64,000 nt of DNA, taken from contig JALHMR010000007.1 of the NCBI GenBank assembly GCA_022843945.1, forward strand, positions 116,546 through 180,545, in the 5' to 3' direction. This document shows, one piece after another, positions 43,578-63,843 of this stretch (its first letter is position 1; the number at the start of each line of letters is the position of its first letter). A program made the position numbers and the translations under genes. The notes beneath the pieces are model-generated. The model ran no database searches, was not told where the DNA came from, and was given only the letters and a program-made list of their open reading frames with translations. This DNA comes from Rhodospirillaceae bacterium. Lineage in GTDB: Bacteria; Pseudomonadota; Alphaproteobacteria; CACIAM-22H2.

Positions 43578-44675
<1,098 letters not shown>

Positions 44676-44722
44676 TGTTGCCGGACTGAAAGGGGCGGCA
44701 CCATGGACGAGCGGAAGGGGAA

Positions 44723-45601
44723 ATGAAGCGGCCGGGGCCAGTGCTTCGCCTGGCGGCACCCCTGCGCGTCCTCGCGCAGCGCTTCACCTTTTTGGGCCTC
44801 GTGGCCCTCTCGGTGGGCCTGATGGTCTTCGGCAAGGCCGAGGCGCCGCTGGTCGAGCGTGCCCGCATGACGGTGACCGATGCGCTGGTGCCGATCCTCG
44901 ACGCGGTCTCGCGTCCCGTGGCGACCGCGGCGGAGATGGTCACCCGCATGAACGAGATCATCGACGTTCACGCCGAGAATAACCGCCTGCGCGAGGAGAA
45001 CGAGCGTCTGCTGCGCTGGCAGTCGGTGGCCACCAAGCTGGAGGTCGAGAACCGCAGCCTGCGCGAGGTCGCCAAAGTGACGACCGAGGAGCCGGTCAGC
45101 TTCGTCACCGCTCGCGTGGTGGCCGACGCCGGCGGCACGTTCGTGCGCTCGGTCCTCGTCATGGCCGGGACGAGGGACGGCGTGGCCAAGGGCCAGAGCG
45201 CGGTGACGGCCGACGGACTGGTGGGCCGTGTCGGCGAGGTCGGCGAGCGTTCGGCGCGTGTCCTGCTCCTCACCGACCTCAACAGCCAGGTGCCGGTGAT
45301 CATCGAATCGAGCCGTGAACGCGCGATCCTGGCGGGGGACAACTCGGACAAACCCCGGCTCACCCATCTGCCGGTCACCGCCCGGCCACAGGTCGGCGAT
45401 CGCGTCATGACGTCCGGTCATGGCGGCGTTTTCCCGCCGGGCCTGCCGGTCGGCATCATCGTCGCCGTGAATGAGGGCGTGGCCCGCATCAAGCCGTTCG
45501 TCGAGTTCCATCGCCTCGACCATGTCCGGCTCATCGATTTCGGACTGTCGGGGACATTGCCGGTCGGGGCTCCGCCGCCGGCGCCGCGCCGCGGCCGCTA
45601 A
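44723..45601 (+). CDS. mreC: Rod shape-determining protein MreC
   Basis: An N-terminal transmembrane segment, a coiled coil (ENNRLREENERL) and a beta-domain. Confidence 0.85.
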   Translation: MKRPGPVLRLAAPLRVLAQRFTFLGLVALSVGLMVFGKAEAPLVERARMTVTDALVPILDAVSRPVATAAEMVTRMNEIIDVHAENNRLREENERLLRWQSVATKLEVENRSLREVAKVTTEEPVSFVTARVVADAGGTFVRSVLVMAGTRDGVAKGQSAVTADGLVGRVGEVGERSARVLLLTDLNSQVPVIIESSRERAILAGDNSDKPRLTHLPVTARPQVGDRVMTSGHGGVFPPGLPVGIIVAVNEGVARIKPFVEFHRLDHVRLIDFGLSGTLPVGAPPPAPRRGR

Positions 45602-45606
45602 CCGCC

Positions 45607-46125
45607 ATGATGCCATCGCTGTTCATGCAGCGTCTCGACGGCTGGACCCGGGCGTCCATGCCGATGACGTTGACCTTGGTCATGGTCGTACTCAACGTGG
45701 TCCCCTTGCGCCTGCCCGACTACGCGCCCCTGGCGCCGGGTTTCGTGCTGATGGCCGCGTTCTACTGGACCGTCCATCGGCCCGACCTGATGCGGCCCTG
45801 GGCGATGTTCGCGATCGGTCTGCTTGACGACGTGCTGTCGGGCACGCCGCTCGGCGTGAACGCCCTCATCCTCTTGTTCGTCCACTGGATGATCATGAGC
45901 CAGCACAAGGCATTCCGCGGCCAGTCGTTTGTCGTGGTCTGGCTCGGCTTCGCCATGGTCGCCCTCGGCGCCAAGCTGCTGCTGGCGGTCATCGTACCGC
46001 TGGTCGGCTACGGCCTGCTCGATCCTCTGGTGCTGCTCGTCCAGTACGCCCTCACCGTGGCGCTCTATCCGCCGATCGCTTTCGTCATGGGGCGGGCGCA
46101 GCGCGCCCTGCTGCCCGCGCCATGA
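45607..46125 (+). CDS. mreD: Rod shape-determining protein MreD
   Basis: A small polytopic membrane protein in the canonical position. Confidence 0.75.
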   Translation: MMPSLFMQRLDGWTRASMPMTLTLVMVVLNVVPLRLPDYAPLAPGFVLMAAFYWTVHRPDLMRPWAMFAIGLLDDVLSGTPLGVNALILLFVHWMIMSQHKAFRGQSFVVVWLGFAMVALGAKLLLAVIVPLVGYGLLDPLVLLVQYALTVALYPPIAFVMGRAQRALLPAP

Positions 46126-48032
46126 GCTCGGCCATGAAACGCGAGAACAGCCTGGCCCGGCTGTTCACCCGGCGCGCCGTCATGCTGACTGGCGGACAGC
46201 TGACGCTGTTCGGAGCGCTGGTCGGGCGCATGTACTACCTGCAAGTCATCGAAAGCGACCGCTACAAGATGCTGGCGGAGGACAACCGCATCAATCTGCG
46301 GCTGTTGCCGCCGCCGCGCGGACGGATCGTCGATCGCTACGGCGTGATGATCGCCGAGAATCAGCTCAACTACCGCATCGTCGTGGTGCCGGAACAGACG
46401 GGCAGCGTCGGGGCCACCCTCGACGCGCTCAACGAGATTGTGCCGATCGATGAGGTCGCGCGGCGGCGTATCTTCCGCGAGGTGGCGCGCAAGCGCAAAT
46501 TCCTGCCGGTGACGGTGAAGGAGAACCTGACCTGGGACGAGGTCAGCCGGGTCGCCGTCAACGCGCCCGACCTGCCGGGGGTGATGATCGATGTCGGCTC
46601 GAGCCGCCACTACCCGCACGGCGAGCAGCTCGCCCACGTCGTCGGCTATGTGGCGCCGCCATCGGAAGCGGATCTCACCGGCGATCCGCTGCTCGAGCTC
46701 CCGGATTTCCGCATCGGCCGTAACGGCGTCGAGCGCGTCTATGACCTGGCCCTGCGCGGCAAGGCGGGATCGAGCCAGATCGAGGTCAATGCGCTGGGCC
46801 GGCCGATCCGCGAGCTCGAGCGGGCCGAGGGCGAGCCGGGTAACGACCTGGTCCTGACCCTCGACCTTCACCTGCAGAATTTCACCGTTGAGCGGCTGGC
46901 CAAGCATGAGAGCGCCGCGGCCGTGCTCATGGACGTCCACAACGGCGAGGTCCTGACCCTCGCCTCGGTGCCGAGCTTCGACCCGAACGAGTTCAACAAG
47001 GGCATCAGCGGCCCGCTGTGGCGCTCGCTGCTTGGCAATACGAGGACACCGCTGATCAACAAATCCGTCGCCGGCCAGTACGCGCCCGGCTCGACGTTCA
47101 AGATGATCGTTGCCATGGCGGCGCTCGAGGCCGGGCTGGTGACGCCGGAGCATCGCGTCAGCTGTCCGGGCCATATGTCGCTGGGCGACAGCAAGTTTCA
47201 TTGCTGGAAGTCCAAGGGTGGGCATGGCGGCCTCGACATGGTCGAAGGGCTCAAACAGTCCTGCGACGTCTATTTCTACGAACTGTCGCGCCGGCTCGGC
47301 GTCGACCGTATCGCCGAGATGGCCAAGCGCTTCGGGCTTGGCGCCATCACCTCGATCGACCTGCCCGGCGAGAAGGCCGGCCTGATGCCGACCCGCGCCT
47401 GGAAGCTTGGCGCCACCGGTGTCGCCTGGCAGCAGGGCGAGAACCTGGTGGCGGCCATCGGCCAGGGCTTCGTCCTGACCACTCCCTTGCAGCTCGCCGT
47501 GATGACCTCGCGGCTGGTCAATGGCGGCTACGCCGTGACCCCGCACCTGACGCGCGATGCGGTCTCCGGGCGCAAGGTGGGCCAGCGGGCCCAGCAGCAA
47601 TTCCCCTCGCTGGGCGTGTCCCAGCAGACCCTGGCGGTCATGGGGCGAGCCATGCGCGGCGTGGTCAACGATCCGCGCGGCACCGCTTTCCGCTCCCGCA
47701 TCACCGACGTCACAATGGCCATGGGTGGCAAGACCGGGACCTCGCAAGTGCGGCGCATCACGGAGGAAGAGCGCCGCGTTGGCCTGCGCAAGCCCGACCA
47801 GGTGCCCTGGAAGGAACGCGATCACGCGCTGTTCGTCGGTTACGCGCCGGTGGACAACCCGCGTTATGCCGTGGCGGTCATCGTCGAGCATGGTGGCGGC
47901 GGCTCGACCGTCGCGGCCCCGATCGCCAAGGAGATCCTGCTCGAGGCGCAGAAGCGCCTGCAGGAGAAGCCGCAAACCCCGATGCGCTATGCCGGCGGCG
48001 CGGCCTCCGATCCGAAGGCGAGCACGCCCTAG
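46122..48032 (+). CDS. mrdA: Penicillin-binding protein 2 (peptidoglycan D,D-transpeptidase)
   Basis: A PBP dimerisation domain and a transpeptidase domain with STFK, SCD(SxN) and KTG motifs. Confidence 0.9.
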   Translation: MSSAMKRENSLARLFTRRAVMLTGGQLTLFGALVGRMYYLQVIESDRYKMLAEDNRINLRLLPPPRGRIVDRYGVMIAENQLNYRIVVVPEQTGSVGATLDALNEIVPIDEVARRRIFREVARKRKFLPVTVKENLTWDEVSRVAVNAPDLPGVMIDVGSSRHYPHGEQLAHVVGYVAPPSEADLTGDPLLELPDFRIGRNGVERVYDLALRGKAGSSQIEVNALGRPIRELERAEGEPGNDLVLTLDLHLQNFTVERLAKHESAAAVLMDVHNGEVLTLASVPSFDPNEFNKGISGPLWRSLLGNTRTPLINKSVAGQYAPGSTFKMIVAMAALEAGLVTPEHRVSCPGHMSLGDSKFHCWKSKGGHGGLDMVEGLKQSCDVYFYELSRRLGVDRIAEMAKRFGLGAITSIDLPGEKAGLMPTRAWKLGATGVAWQQGENLVAAIGQGFVLTTPLQLAVMTSRLVNGGYAVTPHLTRDAVSGRKVGQRAQQQFPSLGVSQQTLAVMGRAMRGVVNDPRGTAFRSRITDVTMAMGGKTGTSQVRRITEEERRVGLRKPDQVPWKERDHALFVGYAPVDNPRYAVAVIVEHGGGGSTVAAPIAKEILLEAQKRLQEKPQTPMRYAGGAASDPKASTP

Positions 48033-51509: not shown

Positions 51510-53117
<1,608 letters not shown>

Positions 53118-53120
53118 CGC

Positions 53121-54989
<1,869 letters not shown>

Positions 54990-55138
54990 GGGAGGCGGCG
55001 TGATAGCACAGACGGGGCGCGGAAGCGACTGCCGGAGTTGGCGTCTAACTATCTGGAAAAACAACTCGATTTTCGTCCTGCGTGCAAAGCCGGACGGCCT
55101 GCCTATACTGGCCCGCGCCATCAAGTCGGGGGAGCGTG

Positions 55139-55792
55139 ATGATGCGAGTCGGGGGACGGGTGCTGCGTGCATGCGTGGTGGGAGCGGCCCTGCTGGCCAG
55201 CGCCTGCACCCATCTTCAGGCGACCATCGATGACCTGCAGCCGCCCCCGGCGCCGGCGCGCGCCGAGGCGCCGCTTCCCGGTACGTATCGCGTGTCCACG
55301 CCCGGCATAGCCGAGCGCAGCATGGTTCTCGTCGGCGAACTAAGGGCGGTCGGTGCCACGCGGGAAGGAACGAAATTCACCGTCACGATCCCCTACGGGG
55401 ATACGCTGCGCAAATCCTTGGAGGCTGGCGTCCGCAGCACGGTCGAAGCGGTGCAGCCAGAGGCTGGCGAGAATGCGGCGCTGATCGAGATCCGGCTGCT
55501 CTCGGCCGGCGGCAGCATCAACTACAGCGGCAACCTGAGCAGCTACAGGCAGAGCGCCTCGGCTTACATGAACTTTGACGTCGAGATCGTCTTGCGCGAC
55601 CGCCTGGGCCGGGAGACGAAAAAGGCCGTCGGGGTGAATACGCCCGGCTACTACTCCTCGTCTTTCTCGGGCGCCTATTTTGCAATCCGCGGTGCGGCGA
55701 AGGATGCAACGGAGAAGGCCATCGCGGCGCTGACGGCCAAGGTGATGGAAGAAGTTGCAGTCCTGTCGCAGAGGACCGTCGAGCTGCGCTAG
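55139..55792 (+). CDS. Hypothetical lipoprotein
   Basis: Lipobox LLASAC at the internal Met MMRVGGRVLRACVVGAALLASAC. Confidence 0.5.
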   Translation: MMRVGGRVLRACVVGAALLASACTHLQATIDDLQPPPAPARAEAPLPGTYRVSTPGIAERSMVLVGELRAVGATREGTKFTVTIPYGDTLRKSLEAGVRSTVEAVQPEAGENAALIEIRLLSAGGSINYSGNLSSYRQSASAYMNFDVEIVLRDRLGRETKKAVGVNTPGYYSSSFSGAYFAIRGAAKDATEKAIAALTAKVMEEVAVLSQRTVELR

Positions 55793-56235
55793 CGCGAGCG
55801 CCGGCCGACAGCCGATGCGAGCGCGTCAAGGATCGGCCGCTGTCCCTTGAGGATCTTGGCGTGGGCAGTCTCGAGGTCGAACCAGCCGGCGCGGTCGATT
55901 TCGGGGAAGGCGGCCCGCCGGCCCGATCGCGGCGGCCATTCCATCTCGAACAGGTTGCTTTTGAGCGCCGCCGGGTCAGCCCCGCCTTCGGCCGCCCAGG
56001 CGTGGACGATCTTGCCGCCTGGCTGCTTGAAGGCGCCCAGCGCGTGGAACGGTCCCGCGACCTCGAATCCCGTCTCCTCGCCGAACTCGCGACGGGCGGC
56101 GGCCAGCGGCTCCTCGTCCGCTTCGACCGCTCCCTTGGGAATCGTCCAGGCGCCGTCGTCCTTCTTCTTCCAGAAGGGCCCGCCGGGATGAACGAGGAAA
56201 AGCTCGATCCCTCCCTTGGCGGATCGATAGAGCAA
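55789..56235 (-). CDS. NUDIX hydrolase (copy 1)
   Basis: The Nudix box region reads GAVEADEEPLAAARREFGEETGF. Confidence 0.8.
   Translation of the reverse strand: MLYRSAKGGIELFLVHPGGPFWKKKDDGAWTIPKGAVEADEEPLAAARREFGEETGFEVAGPFHALGAFKQPGGKIVHAWAAEGGADPAALKSNLFEMEWPPRSGRRAAFPEIDRAGWFDLETAHAKILKGQRPILDALASAVGRRSR
55795..56215. repeat. Direct repeat copy A (~0.42 kb, near-identical at the nucleotide level to 59724..60170)
   Basis: Shared stretches such as GACCGCTCCCTTGGGAATCGTCCAGGCGCCGTCGTCCTT and GGCGGCCATTCCATCTCGAACAGGTTGCT. The encoded NUDIX proteins are about 85-90 % identical. Confidence 0.7.
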
Positions 56236-56309
56236 GATACCGGCGCTGATTACTCCGCTTGCTCATGGCAACTCATTACCGCAAAAAAGGCCGGGGACAG
56301 AGCGTCAAT

Positions 56310-56531
56310 ATGAACAGGGAAAGCGCCCGGCTCGGCGCCTGGCCCGCGATCAAGCGGCGCCCCACGGCGCGCGAGACCTATAGCCGCAGCGGCAAGTTTT
56401 TCATCGTCGATGCGGTCAACTATGGGCTGGTCATCGTGCGCCCCCAGACCTCACCGCCGGAGGTCGAGATCCGCTTTGTCGGCCTGGACAACGCAGTGCG
56501 TCACACACGGACCCTGCGCGCTTCCGTCTAG
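56310..56531 (+). CDS. Small hypothetical protein (73 aa)
   Basis: MNRESARLGAWPAIKRRPTARETYSRSGKFFIVDAVNYGLVIVRPQTSPPEVEIRFVGLDNAVRHTRTLRASV. Third-position GC bias is coding-like but I find no recognised family. Confidence 0.3.
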   Translation: MNRESARLGAWPAIKRRPTARETYSRSGKFFIVDAVNYGLVIVRPQTSPPEVEIRFVGLDNAVRHTRTLRASV

Positions 56532-56718
56532 GTCGTCGTCGACAGGCTGGCGAGCAGCGCGGTTACGATCGCGCGTGAGAGGCGGCGTGACAGCCTGACG
56601 GGCGGCGGTGCGACCGCAGGAATAGGCAGTCTGGCCTACTTTTGGCGCCTGGCCGCTCGCTATCCCGCTGCGCCGGATTTGGAGTGTTGACTCCCCGAAG
56701 GCGGATGTTCCACACTTA

Positions 56719-56751
56719 ATTGTCCGACAAATAATAGTCAGTTGTCCGACA
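56719..56751. promoter_or_regulatory. Two copies of the palindromic box TTGTCCGACAA, 11 bp apart, upstream of the TRAP operon (GntR/FadR-type operator shape)
   Basis: aaTTGTCCGACAAataatagtcagTTGTCCGACAAtac lies 35 bp upstream of the dctP RBS, in a non-coding gap. Confidence 0.45.
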
Positions 56752-56785
56752 ATACGTGTCACGGCATCCTCCCAGGGAGAAAACG

Positions 56786-57763
56786 ATGATTTACCGAATT
56801 GCTTTTAGCCTGGTTGCCGCCGCTCTCGGCCTCGCACTGGCCGCCGGCGCCCAGGCCCAGCAGACGCTGCGCATGAGCATCTCCATCCAGCAGAACTCGC
56901 ATTACGGCGTGGCGGTGGACGCCATGGCGCGGGAGATCGAGAGGCGCACCGCCGGGCGCTACAAGATGCAGAACTTCTATGCCAGCGCGCTGGGCGCCGA
57001 GCGCGAGGCGATCGAGGGCGTTCAGCTCGGCACCATCGACCTGACCATGACCTCGACCGGCCCGATCCCCAACTTCGTGCCGGAAGTGTCGATCCTCGAC
57101 ATCCCCTTCCTGTTCCGCGACTACGCCCATGCCCGCGCCGTGCTCGACGGTCCCATCGGCACCGAGATGCTCGGCAAGTTCGACTCCAAGGGCATGAAGG
57201 CGCTCACCTGGGCGGAGAACGGCTTCCGCCACATGACCAACAACAAGCGGCCGGTCCATGCGCCGGCCGACCTCAGCGGCCTGAAGCTGCGCACCATGGA
57301 GAACCCGGTGCATATCCAGGCTTACAAGGGCTTCGGCATCATCCCGACGCCGATGGCGATCAGCGAGGTCTTCACCGCCCTCCAGCAGGGCACGGTCGAC
57401 GGCCAGGAGAACCCGATCTCCTCGATCCAGGGCCAGAAGTTCGACCAGGTGCAGAAGCACCTCTCGCTGACCGGCCACGTCTATTCGCCGGCGGTCATCC
57501 TGATGAACAAGGGCAAGTGGGATGCGCTGCCGGCGGCCGACAAGACAGCCTTCGTCGAAGCCTCCAAGGTGGCGGTCCAGGCCAACCGGGCACGCATCGA
57601 GTCCGACGAGGCGGGCGGCGTGGCCTACTTCCGCTCCAAGGGCATGGAGGTGGTGGAGAACGTCGATCGCGCCAAGTTCCAGGCAGCCCTGGCGCCGGTG
57701 TTCGTCGAGTTCAGCAAGAAGTTCGGCGAAGCGAACATCGCCCGTATCCGCGACTATAAGTAA
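56786..57763 (+). CDS. dctP: TRAP transporter substrate-binding protein DctP family
   Basis: A GGGAGAAAAC RBS and signal peptide. The DctP fold shows in ...MTSTGPIPNFVPEVSILDIPFLF. Confidence 0.85.
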   Translation: MIYRIAFSLVAAALGLALAAGAQAQQTLRMSISIQQNSHYGVAVDAMAREIERRTAGRYKMQNFYASALGAEREAIEGVQLGTIDLTMTSTGPIPNFVPEVSILDIPFLFRDYAHARAVLDGPIGTEMLGKFDSKGMKALTWAENGFRHMTNNKRPVHAPADLSGLKLRTMENPVHIQAYKGFGIIPTPMAISEVFTALQQGTVDGQENPISSIQGQKFDQVQKHLSLTGHVYSPAVILMNKGKWDALPAADKTAFVEASKVAVQANRARIESDEAGGVAYFRSKGMEVVENVDRAKFQAALAPVFVEFSKKFGEANIARIRDYK

Positions 57764-57879
57764 GCAACGAGGCCCGGGTGAGCGCCGACGGTCTCCTCCC
57801 ACCGGCGCCGCACCCCGCCATCGGGGGCGCCCGGCCCGCCTCGGCGCGGGCCGGCGCCTTTTCCTCTATCCTGGCACCC

Positions 57880-58374
57880 ATGAAGGCTACTCTGCTGGCC
57901 GTCGAGCGGCGGACCACCGACCTGGCAATGCGGGCGTCCTGTGCCATGCTGGTCGTCGCGGCCTGCATTGGCATGTACCAGATCATCACGCGGTTCGTGC
58001 TGCATCAGCCGGCCGAGTGGTCCGAGGTCTCGGTGCGGCTGGCGCTGATCTGGATGGTGTTCCTCGGCATTCCCATGGCTTTTCGCGAAGGCGCCATGGT
58101 CTGCGTCGACTTGCTCTACCGGAAGGGCGGCGCGCGCCTGCGCCGCGTGCTCGATACGCTGATCCTGGTCACCAGCCTGACGCTGGTGCTGGTGATCATC
58201 TGGTTCGGTACGGAATATGCCTGGCGGACCCGCTTTCAGACCATTCCGGGGATGGAATCGTTCACCATCATCTGGGGCTACGCGGCGATGCCGGTGGGGG
58301 CGGTCTTCTCGATTCTCTCGATCATCGCCCAGTGGCTGCAGCCCCGCCGCCACGATCTTGAGACGGCGCAATGA
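57880..58374 (+). CDS. dctQ: TRAP transporter small permease DctQ family
   Basis: Four transmembrane helices. The likely start is the internal Met MKATLLAVERR of ORF 57778. Confidence 0.7.
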   Translation: MKATLLAVERRTTDLAMRASCAMLVVAACIGMYQIITRFVLHQPAEWSEVSVRLALIWMVFLGIPMAFREGAMVCVDLLYRKGGARLRRVLDTLILVTSLTLVLVIIWFGTEYAWRTRFQTIPGMESFTIIWGYAAMPVGAVFSILSIIAQWLQPRRHDLETAQ

Positions 58375-58412
58375 CCGCCGGCTGCGCAACCTTGAAGTAG
58401 GACAGGGCTGCC

Positions 58413-59723
58413 ATGGCGACCGCAATGCTCGTGACCATGTGCCTGTGCTTCGCGCTATCGATTTCGGTCGCGGTGTCGATCGGGCTCTCGGCGCTGCTCG
58501 GCGCCTGGCTGTCGAACGTCAACATGCTGATCTCCGTCAAGGAGATGTACGCTTCGATCAACAAGTTCCCGCTGGCCGCCATTCCCTTCTTCATCCTCGC
58601 GGGTAACCTGATGGAGACCGGCGGCATCTCCAAGCGCCTGGTGGATTTCGCCAAGTCGGTGGTGGGCGGCGTGCAGGGCGGGCTGGCGGCGACCTGCGTG
58701 TTGACCTGCATGATCTTCGCCGCGGTGTCCGGCTCGAGCGTCGCCACCACCTTCGCCATCGGCGCCATCTTGATTCCGGCGCTGATTCAGCACGGCTATC
58801 CCCGCAACTACGCGGCGGCGCTGCAGGCGACTTCGGCCGAACTCGGCGTCGTCATACCGCCGTCGATTCCGATGATCATCTTCGGCGTCTCGGCCGAAGT
58901 GTCGATCGGCGAACTGTTCATCGCCGGGTTCGGCCCGGGCATCCTGATCGGTGTGGCGCTGATGATCTTCGTCATCATCTACGCCCGCTTGAAGGGCTAT
59001 GGCAAACGCGACCACGAAGGGCGGCTGCCTCTCCTCACCGCCACCCGCCAGGCTGGGTTTGCCCTGCTCATGCCCGTCATCATTCTCGGCGGCATCTATG
59101 GCGGCATCTTCACCCCCACCGAGGCGTCGGTGATGGCGGTGTTCTATGCCTTGATCGTCGGCATGGTCCTCCACCAGGAGCTGAGCTGGGCCGCCCTGGG
59201 CCCGATCCTGCGAAAATCGGCGGTGTCGTCGGCGGTGATCCTGTTCATCATCGCCAATGCCGGCCTGTTCAGCTACCTGATCACCCGGGCCGGCGTGCCC
59301 GATCAGATCGGCTCTTACCTGCGCGAAGTGCTCGACAGCCCGGCGGTATTCCTTCTCGGCGTGAACGTGGCCTTGTTCATCATCGGCATGTTCATCGAGA
59401 CCTCGGCGTCGATCATCGTCCTGGCACCGATGCTCGTACCGGTGGCCATCAGCTTCGGGATCGACCCCGTGCATTTCGGCCTGATCATGGTGGTCAACCT
59501 GGCTCTGGGCATGATAACGCCGCCGTTCGGGGTCAACCTGTTCGCCGCGTGCACGGTCGCCCGCATCACGCTCGACGAGATCGTGCCCCGCCTGCTGCCT
59601 TTCGTCCTGGTCGTGCTCGGCTGCCTGATGATCATCACCTACGTGCCGTCGATCTCGCTGACCCTGCGCGACTGGGCGTATCCGATGTCGGCGCAAAACG
59701 CCCCGGCGGCGCAGCCGCGCTAG
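58413..59723 (+). CDS. dctM: TRAP transporter large permease DctM family
   Basis: 436 aa with 12 or more transmembrane helices and the DctM family pattern. Confidence 0.85.
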   Translation: MATAMLVTMCLCFALSISVAVSIGLSALLGAWLSNVNMLISVKEMYASINKFPLAAIPFFILAGNLMETGGISKRLVDFAKSVVGGVQGGLAATCVLTCMIFAAVSGSSVATTFAIGAILIPALIQHGYPRNYAAALQATSAELGVVIPPSIPMIIFGVSAEVSIGELFIAGFGPGILIGVALMIFVIIYARLKGYGKRDHEGRLPLLTATRQAGFALLMPVIILGGIYGGIFTPTEASVMAVFYALIVGMVLHQELSWAALGPILRKSAVSSAVILFIIANAGLFSYLITRAGVPDQIGSYLREVLDSPAVFLLGVNVALFIIGMFIETSASIIVLAPMLVPVAISFGIDPVHFGLIMVVNLALGMITPPFGVNLFAACTVARITLDEIVPRLLPFVLVVLGCLMIITYVPSISLTLRDWAYPMSAQNAPAAQPR

Positions 59724-60178
59724 GCGAGCGCGGCCAGCAGCGCGGTCACGATCGGGCGCTGTCCTTTCAGGATCTTGATCAGGGCGGTATCGGCGTCGAA
59801 CCAGCCGGCCCGGTCGATTTCCGGGAATGCCGCGCGGCGGCCCGACCGCGGCGGCCATTCCATCTCGAACAGGTTGCTCTTGAGCGCCGCCGGATCGGCG
59901 TCGCCTTCGGCAGCCCAGGCGTGGACGATCTTGCCGCCGGGCTGCCTGAAGGCGCCCAGCGCGCGGAACGGCCCCTCAACCCCAAATCCCGTCTCCTCGC
60001 CGAATTCGCGAAGCGCGGCGGCCAGCGGCTCCTCGTCCGCTTCGACCGCTCCCTTGGGAATCGTCCAGGCGCCGTCGTCCTTGTTCTTCCAGAACGGCCC
60101 GCCGGGATGGACGAGGAACACCTCGGGGCCGTTGCCGCCGCGGCGATGGAGGAGGATGCCTGCGCTTTGCTTGGCCAT
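59720..60178 (-). CDS. NUDIX hydrolase (copy 2)
   Basis: Start at the internal Met MAKQSAGILLHRRG. Nudix box GAVEADEEPLAAALREFGEETGF. Confidence 0.8.
   Translation of the reverse strand: MAKQSAGILLHRRGGNGPEVFLVHPGGPFWKNKDDGAWTIPKGAVEADEEPLAAALREFGEETGFGVEGPFRALGAFRQPGGKIVHAWAAEGDADPAALKSNLFEMEWPPRSGRRAAFPEIDRAGWFDADTALIKILKGQRPIVTALLAALA
59724..60170. repeat. Direct repeat copy B (pairs with 55795..56215)
   Basis: See copy A. Both copies share orientation and flank dctPQM. Confidence 0.7.
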
Positions 60179-60245
60179 GGTCTGCGATCTTAGCGTTGCA
60201 TCGTCGTCAGGCCGATGGGCGATAAAAGGGGGGAGGAGACGTCCC

Positions 60246-60989
60246 ATCGAGTCGCTGACACCCGCCGCTCTCGCATACTGCGCCATTGTTCTCGTACTCT
60301 CCTACGGCCTGCGCGGCACCGCGGGCTTCGGCAGCGTGGTGGCCATGCCGCTGCTCGCCCTGGTCATCCCGATGAAGATCCTGGTGCCGGCCTGGACGCT
60401 GATGGGCATCGCCTCGTCGCTGACTGTGCTCGGCCGCGACCGGGCGCATATCGTGGTCAGGGACCTGGGCCGCATCCTGCCGGCCTGCATCCTGGGCATC
60501 GGCCTCGGACTCTATGTCTTTGCCACGCTCGACACCGACACCTTGGCGCGGGGATTGGGCATCGCCATCATCCTCTACGGGATGTATTCGCTGTGGAGCG
60601 GCGGCAAGGCCGACCCCGCGCAGCCACGCTCACCGCGCCTCGTCGGTCCGATATCGGGCATCCTCGGCGGCATCACCGGGGCCACCTTCGGCACCATGGC
60701 CAGCCTGTTCTTTGCGGTCTATCTCGACGCGCTGCGTGTCACCAAGGTCCAGTTCCGCGCCACCATGTCGGCGCTGCTGCTCACCCTCGGCACCGTCCGG
60801 GGCCTCGGTTACTACGCGGTGGGAGAGTTCAGCCTCGAGGCCCTGATCCTGTTCGCCGCCGGCCTGCCGCTGATGCTGCTTGGCATGTACCTGGGCGACC
60901 GCATCCACGCCCGGATCAGCGAAAGCGTGTTCCGGCGCCTGGTCAGCGCCATCCTGATCGTCAGCGGCATCGCCCTTCTTATTCGCTGA
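60246..60989 (+). CDS. TauE/SafE-family exporter (second paralog); start codon unresolved
   Basis: LTPAALAYCAIVLVLSYGLRGTAGFGSVVAMPLLAL and the rest of the TauE topology. No in-frame ATG, GTG or TTG lies upstream of the first transmembrane helix in my reading. Confidence 0.65.
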   Translation: MESLTPAALAYCAIVLVLSYGLRGTAGFGSVVAMPLLALVIPMKILVPAWTLMGIASSLTVLGRDRAHIVVRDLGRILPACILGIGLGLYVFATLDTDTLARGLGIAIILYGMYSLWSGGKADPAQPRSPRLVGPISGILGGITGATFGTMASLFFAVYLDALRVTKVQFRATMSALLLTLGTVRGLGYYAVGEFSLEALILFAAGLPLMLLGMYLGDRIHARISESVFRRLVSAILIVSGIALLIR

Positions 60990-61176
60990 GCGCGCGCCGG
61001 GTGACCGGGATCACAGCCGGCCGCCAGCGGGCGGGCTAAGTCACGAATCCGGCACCCTTTCTTCCGCGTGCCCTGTCGGCTATCGTCCCGCTGGCACGGC
61101 ATGGCGGCGGGCAAGGGCGCCGGTCCATGTAACCACGCAATTTGGGGGCCTGCTGCCGATGGCGGCGGGTGCGTCG

Positions 61177-63843
61177 ATGGAAACCAGCCTGCATCGCTTT
61201 GTCATCAATCACTCCAAGAAGGAGACCGGCTTTCTTATTGCCCTGACGCTGCTCTCGCTGCCCATCTACTACATCACCCTCGACATCCCGAAGAACGTCT
61301 TCAACCAGGGCATCCTGGGCAAGGGCATCACCTTCCCCACGACCGTGTTCGGCGTGTCGATGGATCAGGTTGGCTACCTGTTCTGGCTATGCTTCCTGTT
61401 CTTCTGCTCGGTGATGGTGAACGGCGCCATCAAGCAGTACATCAACACCTACAAGGGCCGCCTGGGCGAGCGCCTGCTGCGCCGCCTGCGCTATGAGCTG
61501 GTGTCGCGCATCATGCGCTTCCCGCTGCCCCATTTCCGCAAGGTGTCGTCCGGCGAGCTGATCCCGATGATCACCGCCGAGGTCGAGCCGCTGGGCGGCT
61601 ACATGGGCGATGCCTTCGCCCAGCCGCTGATCCAGGCCGGCACGCTGGCGACCATCGCCACCTTCCTGTTCATCCAGAACTGGATGATGGGCATCGCGGC
61701 GATCGTCTTCTTCCCGCTGCAGGGCTACATCATCCCGAAAATGCAGCGCAAGGTGAACCAGCTCGGCAAGGAGCGGGTGCGCGCCATGCGCAAGGTCTCC
61801 GAGCGCATCGGCGAGGCGGTGGCCGGCGCGCACGAGATCCATGCCAACGGCACGGCGAATTACGAGCGCGCCGATTTCTCCGACCGGCTGGGCCGCGTCT
61901 TCAGCATCCGCTTCCAGATCTACATCCGCAAGGGCCAGGTCAAGTTCCTCAACAACTTCCTCAACCAGATGGCGCCGCTGCTCTTCTACTCGCTCGGCGG
62001 CTACCTGGTGATCCAGGGCGAGCTGACGGCGGGCGCGCTGGCCGCGGCGCTGACCGCGCACAAGGACATGTCGGCGCCGTGGAAGGAGCTGCTCGACTAC
62101 TACCAGCAGACGGCGGACTCGAAGATCAAGTACGAGCAGGTCACCGAGCAGTTCCGGCCGGAGAACATGTTCGACGAGGCGCTGCAGGTGCCGCTCAGTG
62201 AGGCGCCCAAGCGCCTGCGAGGCGATATCGTGGCCAACAACCTGGTGGTGGTCGACGAGAGCGCCACGCGGCTGCTCGACGGCATCACCGCGGCGATCAA
62301 GGCGGGGGAGAAGGTCGCCGTGGTCGGCCGGGTCGGCGGCGGCAAGGAAGCGCTGGCCATGGCGCTGGCCCGGCTCTACCTGCCGAGCGGCGGCAAGCTG
62401 ACCTACGGCGGCGCCGACGGTCTGACGCTGTCCGAGCCGATGCTGGGGGCCCGCCTGGGCTACGTGGCGCAGAACTCGTACCTGTTCTCGTCCAGTGTGC
62501 GCGACAACATCCTCTATGGGCTGCGCCAGCGGCCGATCGCGCCCAAGCAGCGCGAGCCGGCGGCCGAAGCCGAGCGCCAGAAGTTCCTGGCCGAGACCAG
62601 GCGCGCCGGCAATCTCGATCTCGACGGCGAGGCCGACTGGACCGACCTGGCAGCGGCCGAGATCAAGGATCCGTCGGCGCTCTCGTCGCGCATCGTCGAG
62701 GTGCTGATGGCCGTCGACCTCGAAGAGGACGTTTTCCAGCTCGGCCTGCGCGGCACGATCGATCCCAAGGCGCACCCGACCATCGCCGGGCGCATCCTCG
62801 AGGCCCGCAAGGGGCTGCAGCAGCGGCTCGACGACAAGGCGACCGAAGCGGGGATGAGAGGCCTGATCGAGCCGTTCCATCCCGAGCGCTACAACACCAA
62901 CGCGACCCTGGCGGAGAACCTGCTGTTCGGCACGCCCATCCAGCCGGCCTTCGAGGTCGACAGGCTGGCGACCAACTATGCCGTGCTCAAGGTGCTCGAC
63001 CAGGTCGGGCTGGCCGAGAAGCTGGTCGCCGCCGGGCGCGAAGTGGCCGCGGAAATGATCGAAATCTTCGCCGACCTGCCGCCGGATCACGAATTCTTCG
63101 AGCAGTTCGGTTTCATCTCCTCCGACGACCTGCCGGAGTTCCAGGCGATCCTGTCGCGCATCTCGCGCCCCGATACGCCGATGCTGCCCGAGGACCGCGC
63201 CCGGCTGATGACCCTGCCGTTCAAGCTGATTCAGACCCGCCACCGTCTCGACGTGCTGACCCCCGAGCTGAAGGACAAGGTTCTGGAGGCTCGCCAGGCG
63301 CTGCGCGCCAGCGAGGATCCGGTGGTCAAGGTCGGCGTCGAGTTCTTCGATCCCGACACCTACAACGCCGCGGCGACCATCCAGGACAACATCCTGTTCG
63401 GCAAGCTGGCCTACGGCCAGGCCAAGGCCAGCCAGCGCGTCGGCAAGGTGATCGAGGCGATCCTTAACGATCTCAACCTGCGCTCGACCGTGGTCGAGGT
63501 CGGGCTGGAATTCGCGGTCGGCGTCGGCGGCGCCAGGCTTGCGCCGCCGCAGCGGGCGAAGGTGGCGCTGGCCCGCGCGCTGCTCAAGCGGCCGGATGTG
63601 CTGATCGTCAACGAGGCGACGGCGATCCTCGACGCCCAGAGCCAGGCGCGCACGCTCGACGGCGTGCTCAAGGAATCCGACGGGCGCACCCTGATCTGGG
63701 TGTTGCACAATCCGACACATGCCAGCCGCTTCGACCGGGTGCTGGTGATCGGCGAGGGCCGGGTTATCGAGTCCGGGTCGGTCGGCGATCTGCAGAAGGA
63801 CGGCAGCGTGTTCGCCGAGCTGATGACCGCGGCGGCGGCGTAA
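61177..63843 (+). CDS. ABC exporter-like protein (type-I TMD + NBD) with degenerate Walker A/signature/Walker B and a ~300-aa insertion holding three Q-loop-like repeats
   Basis: The TMD is about 330 aa. Walker A is GRVGGGKEA (Glu where Ser/Thr is expected). The signature reads VGVGGARLAPPQRAKVALARALL (no LSGGQ) and Walker B is VLIVNEAT. Three repeats are YVAQNSYLFSSSVRDNILYG, IEPFHPERYNTNATLAENLLFG and VEFFDPDTYNAAATIQDNILFG. Confidence 0.8.
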   Translation: METSLHRFVINHSKKETGFLIALTLLSLPIYYITLDIPKNVFNQGILGKGITFPTTVFGVSMDQVGYLFWLCFLFFCSVMVNGAIKQYINTYKGRLGERLLRRLRYELVSRIMRFPLPHFRKVSSGELIPMITAEVEPLGGYMGDAFAQPLIQAGTLATIATFLFIQNWMMGIAAIVFFPLQGYIIPKMQRKVNQLGKERVRAMRKVSERIGEAVAGAHEIHANGTANYERADFSDRLGRVFSIRFQIYIRKGQVKFLNNFLNQMAPLLFYSLGGYLVIQGELTAGALAAALTAHKDMSAPWKELLDYYQQTADSKIKYEQVTEQFRPENMFDEALQVPLSEAPKRLRGDIVANNLVVVDESATRLLDGITAAIKAGEKVAVVGRVGGGKEALAMALARLYLPSGGKLTYGGADGLTLSEPMLGARLGYVAQNSYLFSSSVRDNILYGLRQRPIAPKQREPAAEAERQKFLAETRRAGNLDLDGEADWTDLAAAEIKDPSALSSRIVEVLMAVDLEEDVFQLGLRGTIDPKAHPTIAGRILEARKGLQQRLDDKATEAGMRGLIEPFHPERYNTNATLAENLLFGTPIQPAFEVDRLATNYAVLKVLDQVGLAEKLVAAGREVAAEMIEIFADLPPDHEFFEQFGFISSDDLPEFQAILSRISRPDTPMLPEDRARLMTLPFKLIQTRHRLDVLTPELKDKVLEARQALRASEDPVVKVGVEFFDPDTYNAAATIQDNILFGKLAYGQAKASQRVGKVIEAILNDLNLRSTVVEVGLEFAVGVGGARLAPPQRAKVALARALLKRPDVLIVNEATAILDAQSQARTLDGVLKESDGRTLIWVLHNPTHASRFDRVLVIGEGRVIESGSVGDLQKDGSVFAELMTAAAA

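Follow-up and report, generated by a model that had tools for sequence, protein, structure and literature searches.

A dctPQM TRAP operon between two reciprocally chimeric NUDIX genes: a candidate single-crossover insertion in a Rhodospirillaceae bacterium

Campbell-type single-crossover integration of circular DNA is known from non-replicating plasmids and plasmid–chromosome cointegrates, and RecA-dependent unequal exchange is known to duplicate, amplify or delete a selectable gene flanked by directly repeated sequences, for example rrn operons or insertion sequence (IS) copies. Accessory operons also occur in conserved core regions as integrase islands, with short exact att cores, often tRNA 3' ends, at their borders, and natural transformation can proceed by homology-facilitated illegitimate recombination, in which one end of the incoming DNA has a homologous anchor and the other a broken gene (PMC6382021). 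Here we describe a locus that shares features with each of these systems. It lies in a stretch of 64,000 nt from a Rhodospirillaceae bacterium (GenBank assembly GCA_022843945.1, contig JALHMR010000007.1, positions 116,546 to 180,545; hereafter the window, in whose numbering all coordinates are given), where a complete dctPQM operon for a tripartite ATP-independent periplasmic (TRAP) transporter stands between two NUDIX genes, copy A and copy B (Table 1). On balance, we judge that a module consisting of a second NUDIX gene (NUDIX') and dctMQP was probably added here by one homologous (Campbell-type) crossover within the conserved NUDIX core.

As the original prediction for this DNA had it, copies A and B are direct repeats; both lie on the minus strand, and their starts are 3,919 nt apart. 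That prediction also took the repeat to be about 450 bp long and the two copies to be near-identical over about 0.42 kb, which overstated their similarity: the coding sequences are 88.6% identical over 387 ungapped nt, 84.0% when all 432 alignable nt are counted and 91% in the best stretch of 330 nt, with 14, 17 and 38 mismatches at codon positions 1, 2 and 3, a synonymous divergence (dS) of 0.35 and a ratio of non-synonymous to synonymous divergence (dN/dS) of 0.16. Nucleotide identity (84–89%) nevertheless stays above the 75% that had been set as the lower limit for the idea. The match is far above chance (BLASTP 83% identity, E 2e-86; blastn E about 1e-145), and the homology starts and stops within the coding sequence, the flanks being unrelated. 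The longest perfect run common to A and B, 68 nt, encodes the NUDIX-box region. On these values the two copies are best described as diverged, selectively constrained homologues and not as a fresh duplication. Direct repeats around a potentially selectable transporter operon recall the amplification of genes between rrn or IS repeats, but those repeats are kilobase-long and near-identical, whereas the NUDIX repeats span 387 nt and are 11% diverged.

Table 1 Features of the NUDIX/TRAP locus and its resident flanks, in window coordinates.
Feature	Position	Strand	Evidence or remark
ABC-F ATPase gene, resident left flank	53121-54989	-	Pfam ABC_tran, ABC_tran_Xtn, ABC_tran_CTD; NCBIfam ABC-F models
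Putative lipoprotein gene (ORFan), resident flank	55142-55792	+	Signal-like N-terminus with Cys; in L088, not in L082
NUDIX copy A	55789-56235	-	148 codons from TTG; Pfam PF00293, E 5.9e-14, 52.7 bits
Deletion junction in the tail of A	55807-55817		Two-register comparison with L088
Direct repeat, copy 1	55820-56206		387 nt, 88.6% identical to copy 2
68-nt block, longest perfect run common to A and B	56096-56163 = 60015-60082		Encodes the NUDIX-box region
DNA upstream of A	56236-56330		Unrelated to the resident TauE–NUDIX spacer; holds the ancestral ATG of A
PhoD-like phosphatase remnant, 5'-truncated	56331-56531	+	Last 65 codons and stop; phmmer against 1.84 billion representatives
TTGTCCGACAA near-palindrome, two copies; candidate repressor operator	56720-56752	+	35-65 nt upstream of dctP
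dctP, TRAP solute-binding protein with signal peptide	56786-57763	+	Pfam DctP (PF03480), E 9e-91; TIGR00787 above cut-off
dctQ, TRAP small membrane subunit	57778-58374	+	Pfam DctQ (PF04290), E 1.5e-26
dctM, TRAP large membrane subunit	58413-59723	+	Pfam DctM (PF06808), E 3.7e-117; TIGR00786 above cut-off
NUDIX copy B	59720-60178	-	152 aa; Pfam PF00293, E 2.9e-13, 50.4 bits
Direct repeat, copy 2	59739-60125		Partner of copy 1
TauE/SafE-family membrane protein gene, resident right flank	60216-60989	+	Pfam TauE, E 6e-27; synteny

Closer relatives of the locus were reached through a protein database followed by contig look-ups. The comparison with one-NUDIX relatives that the original prediction had proposed could be made, and such relatives exist without the TRAP operon. 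The JGI metagenome contig L082 matches the window at 93% over 59759-62360 and at 95% over 53821-55020, the latter reaching through the ABC-F flank up to 55020; its gene order is ABC transporter, TauE, one NUDIX gene (161 aa) and directly ABC-F, with neither the TRAP operon nor the lipoprotein gene. In a second layout (L085/L086 and L088, whose overlap is 95.6% identical) TauE is followed by one NUDIX gene (160 aa), a convergent gene of 309 aa, the lipoprotein gene and ABC-F. The TauE gene adjoins a single NUDIX gene in L082, L085, L086 and the P0003 contig. Because of the layouts in L082 and in L085/L086/L088, the outer flanks of the repeat pair can be recognized as the two flanks of one NUDIX gene, and the unoccupied one-copy site is present in related genomes.

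The occupied state is common to three assemblies of the window's own lineage on the sides that each covers. L001, L083 and L087 are independent contigs of this lineage (97–99.9% identical). The right junction (dctM, B, TauE) is reproduced by L001 and L083 at 97–98% and the left junction (ABC-F, lipoprotein, A) by L087 at 99.9%. These contigs bear on the possibility that the window, which comes from a metagenomic contig of 181 kb, holds an assembly artefact in which two strains or loci were falsely joined through their shared NUDIX sequence. Such a join is conceivable in that the 68-nt exact block could tangle a de Bruijn graph and that positions 55918-58531 have no independent contig coverage. 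However, a misjoin at a repeat exchanges flanking sequences and does not yield two copies around unique DNA, the alternative resolution of the graph needs a free 3.9-kb circle, and both outer junctions are independently reproduced; we hold an artefact to be extremely unlikely.

A donor-like arrangement is found in the contig L084, where a NUDIX gene of 154 aa overlaps a convergent dctM by 4 nt, as in the window, and an unrelated gene lies upstream of the NUDIX gene. The DctM proteins of L084 and the window are 95% identical. Wider surveys gave no comparable arrangement: the species-representative genome collection holds no homologue of B above 69% identity and no shared synteny, none of 80 other species has TRAP genes or a second NUDIX copy within 10 kb of the homologue, and no NUDIX gene lies near dctP at 80 related JGI dctP loci (at most 81% identical). 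Across the loci sampled, NUDIX–TRAP adjacency is rare. The two closest longer dctP contigs (L169 and L170) give no donor context, as they end inside dctM and have unrelated upstream genes. A plasmid origin was considered and rejected, given that plasmid matches were to generic TRAP operons only, at 75% identity or less and without a NUDIX link.

Both NUDIX copies change their closest relative along their length. In windowed identities, B and its upstream spacer match L082 at 95–97% as far as about coding nt 190, this level covering roughly the first 300 columns of the alignment, after which identity is 83–87% and homology finally ends; the tail of B and the DNA beyond it are 78–98% identical to L084. 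The first ~60 nt of A and its upstream DNA are only 40–65% identical to B or L082, and the 3' side of A abuts the resident lipoprotein/ABC-F flank. At three-way informative sites between A, B and L082, numbered by B positions, L082 groups with B at 27 sites and with A at 2 over positions 1-190, and with A at 15 sites and with B at 6 over positions 191-390 (9 versus 1 over 285-390; Fisher p = 2e-6 for the switch). The best breakpoint falls between B positions 96 and 165, the pattern has turned by about position 195, and the switch is at or next to the 68-nt shared block; the probable crossover zone coincides with this block or follows directly on its 3' side when the gene is read forwards. The synonymous distances of the 3' half agree, with a dS of 0.40 for A–L082 versus 0.76 for B–L082, and of 0.51 for B–L084 versus 0.75 for A–L084. 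We read B as a resident-type 5' half joined to a module-type 3' half and tail, and A as a non-resident 5' end joined to a 3' half closer to the resident type. The locus has two direct, reciprocally chimeric copies, with moderate support for the 3' half of A (15 versus 6), and because the chimerism is reciprocal it speaks for one crossover, in which the DNA that came in already had a NUDIX homologue.

This pattern does not fit the reading of the original prediction, in which the resident NUDIX gene was first duplicated, in tandem or as part of a segment, and dctPQM was then inserted between the copies. The A/B comparison shows neither near-identity that includes non-coding flanks nor two resident-derived copies, which a recent duplication should leave; homology is confined to the coding region, the 3' tail of B is non-resident, as are the 5' end of A and the DNA upstream of it, and the copies are reciprocal chimeras. 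Although the shared orientation and the 84–89% nucleotide and 83% protein identity would suit a duplication, the dS of 0.35, the change of nearest relative between the two halves and the pre-existing dctM–NUDIX junction in L084 do not, and we regard this history as highly unlikely.

The two copies also differ in their integrity. Both exceed the curated PF00293 cut-off of 21.1 bits, and both translations hold a complete NUDIX box (Gx5Ex7REUxEExGU), which reads GAVEADEEPLAAALREFGEETGF in B and GAVEADEEPLAAARREFGEETGF in A; in this NUDIX group a conserved HPGGPFW motif is present alongside the complete box. B is intact: it begins with the canonical MAKQSAGILL, its tail is a natural one like that in L084, and a protein identical or 99% identical to it is encoded beside dctM in two other assemblies. 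In A, the family-typical start (MSKRSN..SAGILLY) is split by a frameshift that is seen on the window contig alone. The ancestral ATG at 56264-56266 is out of frame and overlaps the in-frame TGA that precedes the open reading frame (ORF). The earliest codon at which translation could begin is a TTG at 56235, which has no well-spaced Shine-Dalgarno sequence; the rest of the A ORF is open. At the 3' end of A, ~983 nt are missing relative to L088, which removes the 309-aa gene and the original NUDIX tail, and the last ~5 codons derive from what is, in L088, sequence beyond the downstream end of the lipoprotein gene. A departs from other predicted NUDIX NTP pyrophosphohydrolases in having no in-frame MxKQSAGI start and a fused C-terminus, and it may be a pseudogene.

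The NUDIX protein belongs to a single-domain family of ~150-160 aa that is about 60–69% identical across many phyla and carries the JGI name 'predicted NUDIX family NTP pyrophosphohydrolase'; its closest structure is 1SJY from Deinococcus radiodurans. The 161-aa variants of the family (L082, P0003, P0007 and P0009) have a common C-terminal tail, ..EALLQRLSGAA.GQETT, the DNA of which (L082 2603-2672) is noticeably more AT-rich than the remainder of the gene. Exchange appears to have taken place repeatedly at the 3' end of NUDIX.

The operon that the original prediction had placed between the copies is complete, with all three subunit genes adjacent and recognized by their Pfam families (Table 1), and the dctM 3' end overlaps the convergent 3' end of B by 4 nt. 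The canonical P-Q-M order and the signal peptide of DctP are shared with other DctPQM-type TRAP transporters; no cognate regulator or catabolic genes adjoin the operon. The closest solved structures to DctP are 4PDH and 4P9K/4PAK (E ~1e-140), which come from structural-genomics work of the Enzyme Function Initiative (EFI) and were reportedly crystallized with D-erythronate or pantoate. A small hydroxy- or sugar-acid would be a plausible substrate, and the operon is predicted to be a self-contained organic-acid uptake system.

Upstream of dctP there is indeed an operator-like region, as had been expected. Its two copies of the near-palindrome TTGTCCGACAA, at 56720 and 56742 (22 nt apart), are the only matches in the window. 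If one mismatch is tolerated, at least two matches also turn up in 14 of 100 shuffled sequences, and the count of TTGTCCGACAA by itself is weak evidence. The core of the motif, TGTCCGACA, also occurs at -83 of dctP in L089, the closest JGI relative of dctP. The pair is a candidate operator for a regulator whose gene lies elsewhere, possibly one of the GntR type. In L089, the gene upstream of dctP (118-324) ends in a RadC/JAMM-like motif, HNHPSGDPSPS, and the neighbours upstream of this TRAP subfamily differ among all contigs examined (L089, L169 and L170).

The small ORF that had been noticed between the copies is present at 56259-56531, but it does not represent a gene of its own. It has no family match in Pfam or NCBIfam, and in a phmmer search its residues 25-90 align, at 47% identity, with the end (residues 366-430) of a protein of 431 aa that has both a PhoD and a PhoD_N domain. 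The PhoD-like phosphatases that it matches are 431-450 aa long and are matched over their last 65 residues, and no other portion of a PhoD-like gene is found in the window. The remnant sits between the DNA upstream of A and the dctP promoter. It looks like a breakage or trimming scar of inserted DNA, a 5'-truncated fragment being what is expected of broken or trimmed foreign DNA. The 550-nt spacer holds no structured RNA or riboswitch that we could find, with no Rfam match in 54.9–60.4 kb, and scans for sigma-70 promoters and terminators gave nothing informative. A compositional sign of foreign origin was also sought and discarded, as the GC content at third codon positions (GC3) of the TRAP genes is not distinctive (0.86–0.91 versus 0.88–0.95 in the flanks); total GC is slightly lower over 56.2–59.6 kb, owing to codon positions 1 and 2 and intergenic DNA.

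Machinery for site-specific insertion was not seen. No integrase or transposase Pfam domains occur in the ORFs scanned from 43.6 to 64 kb, and there are no terminal inverted repeats; tRNA genes were not specifically searched. The absence of an integrase, transposase or att-like feature is expected from a homologous crossover. The accessory operon in a conserved core region, the direct-repeat flanks and the empty sites in relatives do resemble integrase islands, but the NUDIX repeats are gene-length, diverged and chimeric, unlike short exact att cores at tRNA 3' ends, and the locus lacks the marks of an integrase- or transposase-borne island. The neighbouring genes are core genes (mreB, mreC, a PBP2-type transpeptidase, prfC and ABC-F), and because the cell-shape cluster of mreB, mreC and the transpeptidase (43635-48032) is nearby, we take the region to be core chromosome.

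In the single-crossover history that we favour, the ancestor would have had one NUDIX gene, with the TauE gene on one side and the lipoprotein and ABC-F genes on the other. The incoming DNA, whose source could be a related bacterium or another part of the same genome, would have carried NUDIX' in convergent orientation to dctM, the remainder of dctPQM along with a promoter and an operator for it, and a portion of a phoD-like gene. It could have been a ~3.9-kb circle, or a larger circular replicon the backbone of which was later deleted to leave the truncated phoD fragment. One reciprocal homologous crossover with the resident NUDIX gene, in the highly conserved NUDIX-box region, would then have produced the inserted operon together with B (resident 5', module 3') and A (module 5', resident 3') and would have left the outer flanks unchanged. 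B would have been kept intact and presumably provides the NUDIX function. A, being redundant, would have decayed, its start falling out of frame and a later ~1-kb deletion fusing its C-terminus. A repressor encoded elsewhere would probably control the TRAP operon through the two TTGTCCGACAA sites. Such an event, in which homologous recombination adds DNA and the copy that has become redundant then decays, is of an ordinary, known kind and involves no new mechanism. It resembles Campbell integration in that the insert lies between direct, reciprocally chimeric copies, that no site-specific recombinase gene is present and that recombination between the repeats can reverse it. It differs from Campbell integration with cloned DNA in that the homology is a 0.4-kb gene that is about 11–16% diverged and that a natural event is reconstructed by comparison; in the assembled contigs there is neither a circular form nor a vector backbone, and the truncated phoD is the only remnant.

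The broken phoD end, together with NUDIX as the sole homology between module and target, could instead suggest a linear fragment that entered by homology-facilitated illegitimate recombination or in several steps, with NUDIX' as the anchor, an illegitimate joint at the phoD end and the second NUDIX copy gained through a sister chromosome or a separate event. A broken gene at the other end of foreign DNA is typical of an illegitimate joint, and divergence above 10% is in the range in which such events are discussed (PMC6382021). The likeness to the described process is that of one homologous anchor and a broken gene at the other end; the difference is that the anchor is duplicated here and that the second copy has non-resident 5' sequence. 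Joints of this type normally replace or delete recipient DNA and do not duplicate the anchor, a recipient-derived second copy predicts a resident-type 5' end and upstream spacer for A, which are observed to be non-resident, and more events are required than in one reciprocal crossover. We consider a linear route unlikely.

The direction of change can also be reversed, such that the two-copy NUDIX–TRAP–NUDIX state is ancestral and recombination between the repeats removed the operon separately in each of the single-copy lineages, their single genes being chimeras. Deletion between A and B would leave a gene with the 5' part of B and the 3' part of A between the TauE and lipoprotein flanks, which is the observed site pattern; direct-repeat deletion is mechanistically easy, and an A–B dS of 0.35–0.48 permits an old origin. 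At least two independent losses (L082 and L085/L088) would be needed, versus one gain. L082 has no lipoprotein gene and a different NUDIX tail, and so is no simple pop-out of A by B, while L084 has the tail of the module type and the junction with dctM beside an upstream gene other than TauE. The arrangement is seen in no other of the 80 species, and the truncated phoD would still require an earlier insertion. An ancestral two-copy state is in our view improbable.

Several observations weigh against a single crossover. The 5' end of A has no close sampled relative, and only ~7 of 25 derived sites in its first 96 nt are common with L084, towards which it should lean because the same donor gene would have given B its L084-like tail; over codons 21-64 the A–L084 dS of 0.56 even exceeds the B–L084 dS of 0.32. 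The dS of 0.40 between the 3' half of A and L082 falls short of the orthologue-level closeness seen for the 5' half of B (~0.18). A patch at B positions 215-282 has the opposite site pattern (5 versus 1), and either further exchanges occurred or L082 is itself mosaic; the L082 NUDIX gene has many private sites and a different tail (161 aa). Most informative sites in the first 190 positions fall in a hypervariable loop. The GC3 of the TRAP genes, hardly unlike that of the flanks, lends no independent compositional support, the preference for gain over loss is an argument from parsimony over short metagenomic contigs, and the link between A and dctP (55918-58531) is covered by the window's own contig only.

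The present arrangement may still be able to recombine, as the original prediction had proposed. At 68 nt, the perfect block is longer than the minimal processing segment reported for E. coli RecA, and RecA-dependent recombination between A and B could in principle delete 3,919 bp, restoring one chimeric NUDIX gene, or amplify the operon through unequal exchange. As divergence rises to about 15%, the efficiency of recombination declines in a roughly log-linear manner (PMC6382021). Because the repeats are 11–16% diverged, exchange between A and B would be only rare and the locus fairly stable. A bolder reading is that NUDIX'-dctMQP is a recombinase-free mobile cassette that uses a conserved NUDIX gene as a portable homology arm for integration and excision by RecA only across bacteria, with L084 as another landing site. 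The basis for it is the 60–69% protein identity of the NUDIX gene across phyla and its almost invariant core of ~70 nt, and we think it very unlikely.

The resident flanks have variable features of their own. The segment between NUDIX and ABC-F occurs in three states: it is empty in L082, L088 has two genes there, that of 309 aa and that for the lipoprotein, and the window has only the latter. The 309-aa gene (L088 1115-2044; L085 1005-1325), which is deleted in the window, is convergent with the single NUDIX gene, overlaps it by 32 nt and has no Pfam or NCBIfam match. For the lipoprotein, no homologues outside its own cluster were found among 5.8 billion proteins. Its gene is 95% identical in nucleotides between the window (55189-55807) and L088 (451-1069), versus 87% for the adjacent ABC-F gene and 81–82% for NUDIX/TauE, and because these neighbours are much more diverged, the comparison suggests that the lipoprotein gene alone was recently exchanged between lineages.

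Within the ABC-F gene, a 51-nt repeat (53602-53652/54448-54498) and a 32-nt repeat (53530-53561/54376-54407), both 84–86% identical and 846 nt apart, correspond to the two nucleotide-binding domains and are an ordinary internal domain duplication. An ABC exporter-like protein of 894 aa (61159-63843) has MsbA-type matches in two stretches (residues ~70-477 and 737-891), and its gene has an internal 69-nt repeat, 72% identical (62867-62935/63338-63406), that encodes two ..NxxAT(L/I)xxN(L/I)LFG.. motifs; this suggests that its nucleotide-binding domain is partly duplicated or expanded. Very long antisense ORFs opposite prfC/ABC-F (51873-55139, plus strand), dctM (58455-59858, minus strand) and the ABC exporter gene (61387-63720, minus strand) are not genes but are typical of DNA with ~67% GC and a GC3 above 0.9.

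For annotation, the locus is a warning that direct paralogue repeats around an operon need not be duplications. If the favoured history is right, it would be a natural example of an accessory uptake operon that enters a core neighbourhood without dedicated mobile-element machinery, with a housekeeping-type gene as the recombination site. The occupied, empty and donor-like states are all recoverable from public metagenomes, and the locus would illustrate the aftermath of such an insertion, in which one chimeric copy stays intact and the redundant copy decays.

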